DNA of 64,000 nucleotides from Betaproteobacteria bacterium (GTDB lineage: Bacteria; Pseudomonadota; Gammaproteobacteria; Burkholderiales; CAIKXV01): the NCBI GenBank assembly GCA_021298815.1, contig JAJTHE010000036.1, positions 37,383 through 101,382 of the forward strand, written 5' to 3'. Made by a program: the position numbers and the translations under genes. Shown one piece after another: positions 21,359 through 29,226 of this stretch. The notes beneath the pieces are model-generated. The model saw nothing but the letters and a program-made list of their open reading frames with translations. It did no database searches and had not been told where the DNA came from. Numbering within the stretch: the stretch's first letter is position 1; the number at the start of each line of letters is the position of its first letter.

Positions 21359-21405
21359 CGGGCCTTGCTTGCTCGGATGCTGGCCGTGCCTGGGTGGGTG
21401 CTGGG

Positions 21406-21476
21406 GGCCTGCTGGGGGTATCGCCGGCGCGGCTCCGGCTTCACAGTCGCCTCGCCGGCGATACCCCCAGCAGGCC
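21406..21476. repeat. Long inverted repeat (24-bp perfect arms), palindrome family B copy 1
   Basis: GGCCTGCTGGGGGTATCGCCGGCG (21406-21429) is the exact reverse complement of 21453-21476. Confidence 0.9.
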
Positions 21477-21723
21477 TCGCCGCCGGTTTCCGGTGCGGCG
21501 GCTGGGTGCCCTGAGCGCCGGCAGGATGTCGTGGAACCGGAGTCGCGGGTGGGATCGACGTTCCGTTGACTACGCAGCATGAGCGCGATGTTCCGGCCGA
21601 CCGTAACGCAACGAAACCGCCCGATTTTCCGCATGTAGATGTGCTTGTGCATGCGCACGCACAAGGCTGTCACACGTGCGATGCGCAACCGCGGCGCGTG
21701 GTGGCACGGCAGTGCCTGGCGAA

Positions 21724-21792
21724 GCCGGTGCGGGGTGCCCGCCGACGGGCGACTGTGGAACCGGAGCCCGGCGGCGGGCACCCCGCACCGGC
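21724..21792. repeat. Long inverted repeat (21-bp perfect arms), palindrome family B copy 2
   Basis: GCCGGTGCGGGGTGCCCGCCG (21724-21744) pairs with 21772-21792; the loop matches the copy 1 loop in the opposite orientation. Confidence 0.9.
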
Positions 21793-21846
21793 CTGCACAC
21801 CCACCCGCCCCGGTTTTCGCACGAGCCGGCGCGACGCCCCGCCAAG

Positions 21847-23199
21847 CTACCGCCCGAACAGCCCGCGCAGCACGCCGCCGACGCCTTCCTTGATCACGTC
21901 GGTCACCGTCGGAGCCGCCGGCGCGCGCTGCGCCGACCCGGCATCGCCGCCGTCCGGCGCCGGCTGCTCGCGCCGGCCGCGCGCGCCCGGACGCCCGCCG
22001 GCATCGCCCTCGGCCAGCATCAGCATGCCGGTGGTGCGCTGGCGCACCTTCACCGCGTACTGCTGCTCCCAGGTCACCCGCGGATCGGTCGGACGTGGCG
22101 GGTGCACCACGTTCAGTTCGTCGCCGTAGCCGATGAAGGTCAGCATCGGCGTGCCGGCCTCGCGCACCACCTCGGCCGGCACCGTGCACTCGGTGGTCGA
22201 CGGGGGCAGCACCACGCGTTCCTTGATCAGCCGCGCCACCTCGGTGGGCGACAGCCAGCTGTTCAGGCCCCAGCCCATGTCGGCCAGTTCGCTCGACGAC
22301 CAGATCACGAGGTCCTGCTGTGCGTTCGCGCCCATGGCGGACATGGCATAGCCGGTCGCGTTCGGGATCGACTGCCACTGCACCGACAGGCCACCGCCCG
22401 CAGTGCGGGTGACCGGCTGGAACGACGGCGCCTGCATGAAGTCGGTGCGCTCGGTCACGCTGAAGCGGATGTCCGGCGAATAGTTGCCCTTCACCAGGTG
22501 GTCGCCGCGCAGCGAGGCATCCCCCGGCACCGTCATGCGTGTCTCGGCATTGGGCCAGTGGCCGAAGGTGCGGTTGCGGCCGAACGACGGGCCGCGCGGG
22601 TTGTTGATGCGCACGGCCGGGAACTTCGGCATCTGGCCCGAGGCGATCTTCGCGAAATCGATGACGATCGGCTGGCCGCTGCGCGTGGCGTCGCCGCAGC
22701 CCCAGTAGATCAGCATGCGGCCCTTCGGCTTTTCGAAGTCGCGCGGCGGCGTGTCGGTCTCCTCGCCGCGAGGCTCGGGCGGCGGCGTGCGCGGGGTGAG
22801 CAGCGGCAGCGAGGGTCCCATGTTCATGCCGGCCGGGATCTCGTGGGCCGCGGCGGGCTCGCCGCCGGCGGTGCGCGCCGAGCCCAGCTCCAGCACCATC
22901 GAGCGGCCGCCCTGCATGGGCGAGCCGGCACCGCCGCCGAGCAGTCCGCCGAGCACGCCGGCCGCCCCGCCCGGCATGCCGCCCATGCCGCCGCGCGTTT
23001 CGGCCGAGACCCAGTAGACCGCGACCGGCGGCGTGACCTTCTGCTGCGTGGTCTGCGCGAGGGCCGCGGGCGCCATGGCGGCGCACAGCGCGGCGGCGGT
23101 GGCGGCGGCGAGGACACGCAGCGCGGGAGCGGCCGGCACGGGCGCCGCCGACGATGCGTTCGGATGCTTGCGCAGGGACAGGCTCGGCACGGGCTGCAT
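21847..23199 (-). CDS. Exported hypothetical protein (Gly/Pro-rich)
   Basis: 450 aa ORF with GGAGG RBS, Ala-rich signal peptide ending ALA-Q, typical codon usage; no recognisable catalytic motif. Confidence 0.75.
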   Translation of the reverse strand: MQPVPSLSLRKHPNASSAAPVPAAPALRVLAAATAAALCAAMAPAALAQTTQQKVTPPVAVYWVSAETRGGMGGMPGGAAGVLGGLLGGGAGSPMQGGRSMVLELGSARTAGGEPAAAHEIPAGMNMGPSLPLLTPRTPPPEPRGEETDTPPRDFEKPKGRMLIYWGCGDATRSGQPIVIDFAKIASGQMPKFPAVRINNPRGPSFGRNRTFGHWPNAETRMTVPGDASLRGDHLVKGNYSPDIRFSVTERTDFMQAPSFQPVTRTAGGGLSVQWQSIPNATGYAMSAMGANAQQDLVIWSSSELADMGWGLNSWLSPTEVARLIKERVVLPPSTTECTVPAEVVREAGTPMLTFIGYGDELNVVHPPRPTDPRVTWEQQYAVKVRQRTTGMLMLAEGDAGGRPGARGRREQPAPDGGDAGSAQRAPAAPTVTDVIKEGVGGVLRGLFGR

Positions 23200-25449: not shown

Positions 25450-25517
25450 GCGATACTCCCGGGTTCGTTCGGAGGCACCGACACTAGCAAGAAACCTTGC
25501 GGCCCGCCTGCCGGAAC

Positions 25518-25765
25518 TCAGGCGAAGCGTACCGCCGTGATCGGTGGCAGCGACGCATCGATCGCCTGCCAGCGGTCGCCGCCGTCGTCCGACACCCACA
25601 GCCCGCCGGTGGTGGAGCCGATCGCCAGCGTGCACCCGTCATCGGCTACCCGCAAGGCCGTGCCGGCAGACGAGGTCGAAGCAGTTGCGCTGCGGCAGCC
25701 CGTCGCGCAGCCGCTCGAAGCTGCGGCCACCGTCGCGGGTGCGCGCGACCGACAGCGCCTGCATC
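25518..25765 (-). pseudogene. C-terminal remnant of a BNR/Asp-box (sialidase-like beta-propeller) protein, frameshifted
   Basis: ALSVARTRDGGRSFERLRDGLPQRNCFDLV.RHGLA in one frame continues as VADDGCTLAIGSTTGGLWVSDDGGDRWQAIDASLPPITAVRFA* in another; Asp-box motifs S/TxDGGxxW/F. Confidence 0.78.
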
Positions 25766-26000
25766 GCCGCGGCATCCTGCACCGGCTGGTCGAACACCAC
25801 GCGATCGCGGAACCCGCAGCCCGTCGATGAAGATCGCCACATGCGCCCGCAGGTGGCCCTGTTCGTCGAGAATACAGCCGCGCAGCCGCGGATTCACCGC
25901 GAAGGCCGCCTCCAGCGCCGCGCGCAACGTGGGGCCCGGACCTCGAGTTCGGTACGCGGGTGAGGCGGGCAAGCTGCCGGGTAAACACCAGTCTGGCCAT
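25750..26000 (-). pseudogene. MoaD/ThiS family (ubiquitin-like) gene, frameshifted and lacking the C-terminal GG
   Basis: MARLVFTRQLAR.. / TLRAALEAAFAVNPRLRGCILDEQGHLRAHVAIFIDG / RDRVVFDQPV..MQALS spread over three reading segments. Confidence 0.75.
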
Positions 26001-27008: not shown

Positions 27009-27587
27009 TCAGCGGGCGACCGGCACCGTGCTGTCCCATGAGAAGCCCAGCGGGTCGATGATCCCGGACTGGGCCACCGCGAGTTCGGTCCGCTGGACGA
27101 AGATCGCCTCGCTCTCGACGACGGCGCCCATCGCGCCGGCCATCTCGGCCAGGCGGGGCTGGCCCGAGATCGGCAGCGGGCGCGCGATCACCGGGCCTTC
27201 GCCGATCAGCGACGCATGCGCACGGTCGATCAGCCCGAAGCGTTCGAAGCGCCCGGCGTCGACCACCGCCTGGGCGCGCTCCAGCGTGAACGCACGTCCG
27301 GCACGCAGGTGGGAGACCACCTCATGCCGGGTGGCCAGCACTGCGAGCTTGCGCCCCGGCCCGGTCACGCGCACCACCGGTCCGGTGGTCGCTTCGCCGA
27401 GGCGGGCTCGACCGGCCACCTTGACGTCGTCGAACAGCGGGAAGCTGACCTGCAGTTCCGCCTCGGCACTCAGGCTGTGCGTGTTGAAGGCCATTACCGC
27501 GAACAGCAGGTCGCGGATCACCTGCTGCTCGCAGTCGGGCTGCATCACGAGGAAATCGATGTGATCAGAGATGTGATCGGCGGACAT
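27009..27587 (-). CDS. Hypothetical protein with Cas6f/Csy4-like (RAMP) sequence features, standalone
   Basis: 192 aa; N-terminal beta strand, helix ending AVMAFN, LQVSFPLF, GPVVRV, C-terminal IFVQR...DPLGFS...VP match the Cas6f motif order as recalled; not verified by search. Confidence 0.55.
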   Translation of the reverse strand: MSADHISDHIDFLVMQPDCEQQVIRDLLFAVMAFNTHSLSAEAELQVSFPLFDDVKVAGRARLGEATTGPVVRVTGPGRKLAVLATRHEVVSHLRAGRAFTLERAQAVVDAGRFERFGLIDRAHASLIGEGPVIARPLPISGQPRLAEMAGAMGAVVESEAIFVQRTELAVAQSGIIDPLGFSWDSTVPVAR

Positions 27588-27702
27588 GGCTGCGGCACGT
27601 CGACAAGGCGTCGCAGGTTAGCCGCAAACCCGCTCCCCGGACCGCGTTGCACGGCTGTCCACCGGGCCGCGCGCGGCGTATTCCACACGCCGGCTCTGGC
27701 GT

Positions 27703-27728
27703 GGTGTCTGACCCCGGGGTCAGACACC
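27703..27728. repeat. Perfect 26-bp palindrome of the GGGGTCAGA/TCTGACCCC REP-like family
   Basis: GGTGTCTGACCCCGGGGTCAGACACC equals its own reverse complement. Confidence 0.85.
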
Positions 27729-27744
27729 GACGGCGGGGACGAGG

Positions 27745-28488
27745 TCAGCGGCGGTTCGAGCCGGGCAGGTTCGGGAACAGCCCGGACGGCAGCGACTGGA
27801 TGAACGACAGCGATTCCTCCAGCCTGATCACGTCGGCATACTTCGCATGCATGTCGCACAGGTTGATCGCATGGCTCGCCTGCGCGCGGTCGAAGCAGCC
27901 CTCTTCGACGAGCGACACCCTGAAGTTGTTCGAGAACGCATCGAGCACGGTCGCGCGCACGCAGCCGCTGGTGGTGGTGCCGGTGACGATCAGGCTGTCG
28001 GCGCCGAGCAGCATCAGCCAGGACAGCAGGTTGGTGCCGTGGAAGGCGCTCGGCTTCTGCTTGTAGACGACCAGGTCGTCCGGGCCGGGCGCGATCTCCG
28101 GCACGATCGTGTTGCCGTCGGCCTGCACCCCGGTCGGGCGCACCCGCTCCGCCGAGCGGCTGTTCTTCCAGGCCCACGAGCCGGCGTCCCAGTCGTCCTC
28201 GCGGCGGATCCCGGTCGAGTAGAGGATGGGCAGGCCCTTGCCACGGCCGGCGGCGATCAGCTTCTTGATCGCGGCCACGCCGTCCCAGGCCTCGGCGCCG
28301 CAGGAATTGCGCCAGCGCTTGATCGACTCCAGGATCGGCTCCGGGCGGTCGCCGCAGAAGTTGTAGTTGACGTCGATCACCAGGATCGCCGGCCGCTTGC
28401 CGAAGCCCTGCAGCGCGCCATAGCCGCTCGCCTCGAACACCTGGCGGTCGCGTTCGGTGAGGAATTGATCCCAGATTCGGTCGGACAT
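27745..28488 (-). CDS. Isochorismatase family cysteine hydrolase (maleamate amidohydrolase/N-carbamoylsarcosine amidase-like)
   Basis: GFGKRPAILVID, KQKPSAFHGT, GTTTSGCVRATVLDA, KYADV. Confidence 0.9.
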   Translation of the reverse strand: MSDRIWDQFLTERDRQVFEASGYGALQGFGKRPAILVIDVNYNFCGDRPEPILESIKRWRNSCGAEAWDGVAAIKKLIAAGRGKGLPILYSTGIRREDDWDAGSWAWKNSRSAERVRPTGVQADGNTIVPEIAPGPDDLVVYKQKPSAFHGTNLLSWLMLLGADSLIVTGTTTSGCVRATVLDAFSNNFRVSLVEEGCFDRAQASHAINLCDMHAKYADVIRLEESLSFIQSLPSGLFPNLPGSNRR

Positions 28489-28785: not shown

Positions 28786-29226
28786 ATGAATCCGCTGACC
28801 ATCCCGCGCACCACGCGCTACGACCACCTGTCCATCCGGGGCCGCACCGACTATTCATGGCCGGAAGGGCGCCGCCTCGCGTTCTGGGTGACCACCAACA
28901 TCGAGGCGTCCGCGCTCATGACCGGCTGCGGCCCCGACCCCGGCGGTGCCGACGCGCCTCAGACCCAGCGCAACTGCAGCTGGTGCGACTACTGCCTGCG
29001 CGTGGGCATCTGGCGGCTGTTCGACCTTGCCGACGAGCTGGGCATCCCGCTGTCGCACAACATGAACTCGCTGGTCTGCACGTACGCGCCGGACGTGCCC
29101 GAGGCGATCCGCGCGTACTGCAAGGGTCATCCGCAGGCGGCCAGGGTATGGTGGACGAATCCCGGCGCGATCGCGGCGCACTGCATCGGGTTGCCGGCGG
29201 GAGTCGTGCCCGGGGGTGCGGCATGA
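28786..29226 (+). pseudogene. Polysaccharide deacetylase (PuuE-like) gene with large internal deletion
   Basis: N-terminal WPEGRRLAFWVTTNIE and DYCLRVGIWRLFDL are joined directly to C-terminal VWWTNPGAIAAH; 146 aa, with no central His-containing catalytic segment. Confidence 0.75.

Follow-up and report, generated by a model that had tools for sequence, protein, structure and literature searches.

Does a lone gene for a Cas6f (Csy4)-like protein, with no CRISPR-Cas genes around it, still serve CRISPR, or has it been taken over by its host for other work? The question is raised by a 192-aa open reading frame in a 64,000-nucleotide stretch of Betaproteobacteria bacterium contig JAJTHE010000036.1 (here, the window). 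A preliminary description had reported this frame together with a series of Cas6f-type motifs, and the frame and all of the motifs are present (Table 1). The gene has a GC content of 0.74, 0.47 and 0.88 at the three codon positions and a normal codon bias, and on its 3' side it converges on a nitrilase-family gene. In metatranscriptome contigs, a single 162-nt piece covered 27547-27708 at depth 2 in one of four runs, which is too little for a claim of expression.

Table 1. Features of the Cas6f-like locus (positions in the window)
Feature	Position	Strand	Remarks
Gene for Cas6f-fold protein without catalytic His, 192 aa	27009-27587	minus	single-copy, conserved
-10-like hexamer	27615-27620	minus	27 nt ahead of ATG; in 9/11 clade-1 loci
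Short motif with TGGACA core	27655-27662	minus	~35 nt ahead of -10-like box
Isochorismatase-family gene	27745-28488	minus	Pfam PF00857

The 192-aa protein had no Pfam or NCBIfam match at E 10 and no PDB match by sequence. PF09618 and TIGR02563, the profiles with which the preliminary description proposed to check it, both missed it at this threshold. They also missed 27 aligned family members, and a search of the bacterium's own genome with PF09618 did not return the Cas6f-like gene. A possible PdxR/MocR identity, raised by weak scores in two members that were far below the cut-off, was dismissed.

Structure gave a different result from these profiles and bore out the proposed likeness to Cas6f. 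In the ESM Atlas, 27 of 30 matches were in Cas6/Csy4 clusters, the best at 0.92 with 215 shared features, and a search that excluded the Csy4 clusters found nothing usable. The AlphaFold2 model of the 192-aa protein, built with 27 sequences, had a pLDDT of 83 and a pTM of 0.82. The structure prediction and fold search recommended in the preliminary description put Csy4/Cas6f chains at the top: Foldseek with the clade-1 model (clades are described below) returned Cas6f chains at ranks 1-19 (best E 4.3e-6), and in VIA-align the Cas6 of PseCAST (9gs9_H) had a Z of 14.7 (rmsd 3.0, 157 residues) and P. aeruginosa Csy4 a Z of 14.3 (rmsd 3.1, 152 residues). The first 35 entries listed by VIA-align were all Cas6f, and the best unrelated entry had a Z of 7.8. 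Independently of Foldseek, a search through 48,161 chains found five with Z of at least 8, all of them Cas6f (Z 12.9-9.6); other Cas6 subfamilies are absent from this listing, which does not in itself exclude them. The clade-2 model was weaker (pLDDT 62.5), yet Cas6f again filled ranks 1-12. The 192-aa protein is thus predicted to adopt the Cas6f fold, with an N-terminal ferredoxin domain and a reduced C-terminal domain.

By sequence, the family is 11-17% identical to Cas6f. When an HMM built from 32 real Cas6f proteins collected from genomes was used, all 123 of 123 family members scored better than their own reversed copies, with medians of 15.4 bits for the family and -2.3 bits for the reversed set (reversed maximum -1.9); the 192-aa protein itself scored 9.2 bits. 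Comparison of the family and Cas6f with hhalign gave P values of 1.8e-4 and 4.9e-4 for the N-terminal and C-terminal motifs, at low probabilities of 48% and 32%, respectively. The PADLOC Cas6f models scored two of six family members, with E values of only 0.035-0.057. As the family profile did not match the divergent Cas6f of locus L139 significantly (E 0.23), and as five divergent Cas6f score the family lower than the 27 canonical ones do, no donor subgroup can be named. L139 (G203:C114:3000-9151) is a divergent type I-F locus with Cas3f and two further genes; its 475-aa gene has no NCBIfam Cas8f match and its 229-aa Cas6f is barely above the cut-off. L140, L141 and L143 are compact I-F-like loci with a short Cas6f and long arrays, in which a divergently transcribed Cas3-like gene adjoins an unknown gene of 280-300 aa.

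A single-sequence search found 28 relatives of the 192-aa protein, and a profile search scored 7998 sequences, 449 of them at E ≤ 1; the best 120 of the 449 were all at E ≤ 3e-86. The family splits into two well-supported groups that are approximately 55% identical. Of 15 genomes from the window's genus, 14 carry a single clade-1 copy, and the fifteenth (81% complete) lacks both the gene and the neighbouring orthologue. The 10 clade-1 loci are mostly from Betaproteobacteria or Burkholderiales MAGs. One of them, L006, is labelled Bordetella, but its gene order and 90% protein identity fit the other environmental MAG loci and the label is probably wrong. Clade 2 is known from metagenomes, with two members labelled Gammaproteobacteria bacterium. 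The family was absent from 46 genomes of the order's other families, from seven genomes of one further order, and from samples of the class (0/399) and the phylum (0/350). No relatives were found in viral contigs, plasmids or phages, or in BFVD, where the best match was an unnamed protein at E 8e-3. One of 7989 longer candidates resembled a fusion; it lies on a 1.6-kb contig, is truncated and extended at the N-terminus, and was judged not to be a true fusion.

When 1.84 billion representatives were searched exhaustively with an HMM, 25 hits were returned, none of them a canonical Cas6f at E 0.001. Twelve of the 25 were inspected: full-length P0162, the rest being fragments or frameshifted or chimeric frames. 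Isolation of this kind would suit a cellular RNA-recognition-motif relative of Cas6f that predates CRISPR, or a fold reached by convergence, in either case without descent. However, the narrow and patchy range given above, the retention of Cas6f-specific motifs in their order, and structural matches to Cas6f rather than to other Cas6 types leave such an origin very little probability.

The gene is maintained. Values of dN/dS for the window gene against ten relatives were 0.056-0.297, and medians were 0.13 (55 pairs) and 0.25 (2841 pairs). A full open frame is present in 87 of 91 loci, the remaining four stopping at contig edges, and the alignment of 144 sequences has 41 invariant columns. Identity between the clades is approximately that of ordinary conserved genes in the same lineages (ABC transporter, 57%; SPFH protein, 57%). 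The preliminary description had itself named decay among the findings that would undo its proposal of domestication. The loss of catalytic and RNA-binding features described below is consistent with a decaying leftover of a lost CRISPR locus, but with dN/dS far below 1, intact homologues and so many invariant columns this explanation is refuted, and we allow it next to no probability. Domestication, for its part, agrees with a gene that is intact, fixed in the genus and under purifying selection.

The loci examined for context comprise the window, 10 genome loci and 80 metagenome loci (91 loci, 555 kb), 27 of which reach at least 5 kb on one side. No repeat-spacer array was found near the gene in any of the 91. 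With a similar detector, 28-29-nt repeats turned up in 25 of 35 true cas6f loci (two duplicates included). HMMs of Csy3, Cas1 and a third cas-locus cluster had no match in the 91 loci. The bacterium's own genome (88% complete) has no CRISPR array, and the scan for I-F repeats that had been suggested, made with 21 real repeats, found nothing closer to them than to their shuffles. A Csy3 HMM from 26 real loci gave a best E of 5 in this genome; this negative is weak because the Cas6f HMM ranks the Cas6f-like gene just second among 10,780 ORFs (E 0.86). Among genomes of the genus, Csy3 was found in 0/15, Cas1 in 1/13 and TniQ in 1/15, with neither of the last two in the window's own genome. No TniQ was found among the 133 neighbour proteins, a part of all neighbours, that were scanned with Pfam, and Rfam found one tRNA in the window and nothing else. 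The reported lack of CRISPR context therefore extends, by the searches run, to array, Csy3, Cas1 and TniQ in the whole of the available genome.

These counts bear on a role as a CRISPR modulator, which had also been proposed, whether the protein serves a distant array as an in-trans Cas6f or acts as a decoy for I-F Cascades or CRISPR transposons. Type III systems use Cas6 in trans (PMC12669027), transposon Cas6f is among the top structural matches, and arrays often go unassembled in incomplete MAGs such as these genomes. Nevertheless, the searched hosts almost never have CRISPR-Cas, even though nearly all genomes of the genus carry the gene; its conservation is like that of the ABC transporter and SPFH genes and unlike that of an arms-race protein; and the arm that would grip a repeat hairpin is shortened. 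We disfavour this role and consider it highly improbable.

Metabolic and transport genes make up the neighbourhood; they vary by lineage, and none is common to both clades. The 3' end of the isochorismatase gene is upstream of the Cas6f-like gene in 10 of 10 clade-1 loci, and a member of that family was near it in 0/80 clade-2 loci. The isochorismatase gene is syntenic in clade 1 only and is probably not a functional partner. PIN-domain genes near the Cas6f-like gene in three of the 91 loci (L002:7666-8097, L030:3832-4374 and L037:450-821) are probably independent insertions. A 450-aa Gly/Pro-rich, exported-looking protein is encoded at 21847-23199 (minus strand) and near the gene in seven clade-1 loci; it has no NCBIfam match, and its orthologue no Pfam match. 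Elsewhere in the window, a short frame at 25497-25963 encodes a small, ubiquitin-like-looking product with no Pfam match, and 28786-29226 is presumably a short or broken frame from the start of a deacetylase-like gene. The region around these two frames may be decaying.

Judged from sequence, the -10-like hexamer is likely the gene's own promoter element, and a consensus promoter scan returned no site at 27615-27620. In clade 2, a TAnnnT box is located 4-8 nt ahead of the start in 31 of 79 loci, compared with 3 of 177 other ORF starts, and is exactly 6 nt from the start in 26 loci, a spacing that suggests leaderless transcripts. The TGGACA-core motif, seen by eye in 9 of 10 clade-1 loci and in the window, is a possible regulator site. 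No flank motif other than the -10-like box is common to both clades.

A palindrome ahead of the gene was also reported in the preliminary description, which put forward this and other local hairpins as candidate ligands. A perfect 26-bp palindrome does exist, but it spans 27703-27728, not 27676-27728, and is a member of a dispersed REP-like family that is also present on at least seven further contigs; related copies precede the Cas6f-like gene in L002 and L003 only. The sequence at 21406-21792 contains two hairpins with 27-28-bp stems and a common loop motif, and is part of an insertion of approximately 440 bp (21360-21846) between two converging genes. Five orthologous loci lack this insertion and have approximately 50 bp between the same two genes, and a diverged second copy is found elsewhere (G000 C118, ~2600-2910). 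The insertion resembles an element of the MITE or REPIN type that is specific to this strain. As all of these hairpins belong to dispersed or strain-specific repeats that are unlinked to the gene, we rejected them as ligands.

In Csy4, His29 is the general base (PMC3652601), and a serine-histidine pair and major-groove reading have been described (PMC5965381). Residues were numbered through a control Cas6f (L109) that aligns gap-free to P. aeruginosa Csy4. In most control Cas6f, H29 is 16 residues ahead of the proline of the SFP motif; the x of V-x-A-F-N precedes this proline by 16 residues in clade 2 and by 18 in the 192-aa protein. At position 32, which corresponds to the His29 site, the 144 aligned rows have Leu (88), Met (30), Phe (15), Val (7) or Ser (4), and His does not occur between residues 22 and 35 in any of them, whereas H29 is present in 31/31 control Cas6f. 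Replacement of the catalytic His by Met was thus correctly read in the 192-aa protein, and the recommended comparison of homologues extends the loss of His29 to 144/144 rows and the stand-alone state, without cas genes or arrays, to 91/91 loci. In Csy4, S148 and Y176 act at the active site, R102 and Q104 read bases, and F155 also has a role. Y176 is replaced by L180, invariant in 144/144 rows, and F155 by E160 in 143/144, one residue beyond the aligned block. S148 maps, less securely, to His/Gln143, which is His in 117/144 rows (clade 2) and Gln in 27/144, including the 192-aa protein. For the Arg102/Gln104 site, the structure model suggests L119 and the sequence-only merge the invariant R104.

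A Sulfolobus Cas6 cuts without His, via K25, K28, K51 and R231 (PMC3652601). By analogy, conserved basic residues of the family could stand in for His29 in a ribonuclease that processes host RNA: the family keeps R25 (helix alpha-1) and K56/R60 (next loop), and clade 2 has the His aligned to S148. However, that His is Gln in 27 rows, including that of the 192-aa protein, Y176 and probably S148 are replaced, and the family resembles the Sulfolobus site only in the position of its basic residues, so we regard His-independent cleavage as improbable. The family is likely nuclease-dead; this stops short of proof because Cas6 enzymes without His exist (PMC3652601).

Cas6f has an Arg-rich helix, described along with its Cas7 and TniQ contacts (bioRxiv 10.1101/706143). 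The preliminary description found no evident counterpart that could grip a hairpin, and the arm is indeed reduced: the median arm segment is 21 aa with 4 Arg + Lys in the family, compared with 42 aa with 11 in Cas6f. A helix is absent from this region of the clade-2 model, and the clade-1 model has a short, unconserved one. In Csy4 chains with 155-157 resolved residues, 147-151 were aligned, compared with 152/189 in the full chain, the unmatched part of which is presumably the arm. Both models place a new helix at approximately 144-152, in the RNA-side hairpin. Both clades have a median net charge of +1, compared with +6 in Cas6f, and the 192-aa protein has a net charge of -5 and a pI of 5.7. 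The surface that grips hairpins in classical Cas6f is largely gone. Seven basic residues (R25, K56, R60, R104, R136, R145 and R166) are nonetheless kept in 141-144 of 144 rows. Conservation is 0.88 in the N-terminal domain and 0.74 in the former RNA-binding C-terminal domain.

In Cascade, the N-terminal ferredoxin domain of Cas6f docks Cas7, held by a beta-strand, and TniQ, held in a helix pocket (bioRxiv 10.1101/706143). With this precedent, the family might have become a protein-binding adaptor or small-ligand sensor that uses its N-terminal ferredoxin domain and no longer touches RNA. The better conserved N-terminal domain, the neutral charge, the shortened arm and the helix inserted in the RNA-side hairpin would all agree with this. 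Yet gene order points to no partner, Csy3 and TniQ are absent or nearly so from the genus, and many invariant arginines are kept, and we consider an adaptor or sensor unlikely, although less so than a nuclease without His.

Taken together, we conclude that the family is very probably a domesticated, CRISPR-independent, stand-alone derivative of Cas6f. For its activity, we tentatively favour RNA binding without cutting because several near-invariant basic residues sit in elements bordering the old active site. Against this, the protein is near-neutral and its conserved acidic and basic residues could pair inside it, and the better conserved N-terminal domain fits a protein partner equally well. 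Neither a flank element common to the two clades nor any I-F-repeat-like sequence above the shuffled level offered a clue to an RNA ligand. The fuller proposition is evenly balanced in our judgement: a freed Cas6f with a rebuilt active site that has become a core gene of clade 1 and, putatively, of clade 2, in two distant proteobacterial lineages, and that recognises, or cuts without His, cellular RNA in a non-defence role. In such a course of events, a type I-F cas6f would have stayed behind once the remaining system was lost, given up hairpin cleavage and then become fixed for a host job. The gene would make its own, often leaderless, transcript, and the protein would no longer recognise I-F repeat hairpins. 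Its rebuilt, arginine-lined cleft would instead bind a short host RNA, with the seven kept basic residues holding the phosphates, and its role might be post-transcriptional housekeeping or regulation.

If this is true, the family is a new group of Cas-derived cellular regulators that is invisible to every Cas profile, which suggests that further such orphans are likely among hypothetical proteins; structure searches among 'hypothetical' core genes may expose descendants of Cas proteins that escape profiles. A solitary Cas6f fixed in the chromosome as a core gene would be a clear example of a host putting an immune enzyme to work of its own and would illustrate a change of ligand in the RAMP fold. 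The family is small and open to direct testing, and 41 invariant positions define it well. A full-text search, with most subscription papers beyond its reach, found no published account of a stand-alone Cas6f-derived family, and neither the 2025 classification (PMC12669027) nor a 2022 review (PMC8730458) mentions one in its main-text passages on exaptation and Cas6. The reuse that these sources describe is mostly of repeat RNAs or of multi-gene CRISPR modules, whole or reduced, carried by mobile elements.

Compared with P. aeruginosa Csy4 (2xlk, 4al5), the family is similar in size and has, in the models, a common fold over the whole length, and SFP, G..R, F..R, a G-rich loop and TVP occur in the same order in both. 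It differs in sequence (15-17% identity), in having no His29, a replaced Y176 and an inserted helix, in its halved basic arm and neutral charge, and in having neither cas operon nor array. Mean column identity is 57% in the family and 32% in Cas6f. The family should not be filed as Cas6f: the scaffold is that of Cas6f, but His29, arm, profile score, operon and array all set it apart. Cas6f of I-F3 transposons (PseCAST 9gs9_H, V. cholerae 6pif_H) has the highest Z, within 1 of that of Csy4, and the Phe-Asn that follows the His position in V. cholerae Cas6 (H29-G-F-N) is found in the invariant x-A-F-N of the family. However, the family lacks the His and any nearby TniQ, Cas8-5 or Cas7, and its gene is fixed and chromosomal; descent from I-F3 specifically is a lead only.

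Sulfolobus Sso1437 (PMC3652601) likewise has no active-site His and has conserved basic residues both in helix alpha-1 and in the loop that follows, but it is an active dimeric crRNA nuclease of another Cas6 subfamily in a CRISPR-bearing host, and Cas6 of its type is absent from the listed structural matches. The array-less I-E/STAND modules of Streptomyces (PMC8730458) contain several Cascade subunits in one operon, whereas the protein described here is a lone RAMP protein with a rebuilt active site. Solo-Cas4 (PMC5704561), although a DNA nuclease of another family, is also a Cas-family protein found outside CRISPR loci and kept vertically in hosts that are mostly CRISPR-free, and it is the nearest precedent.
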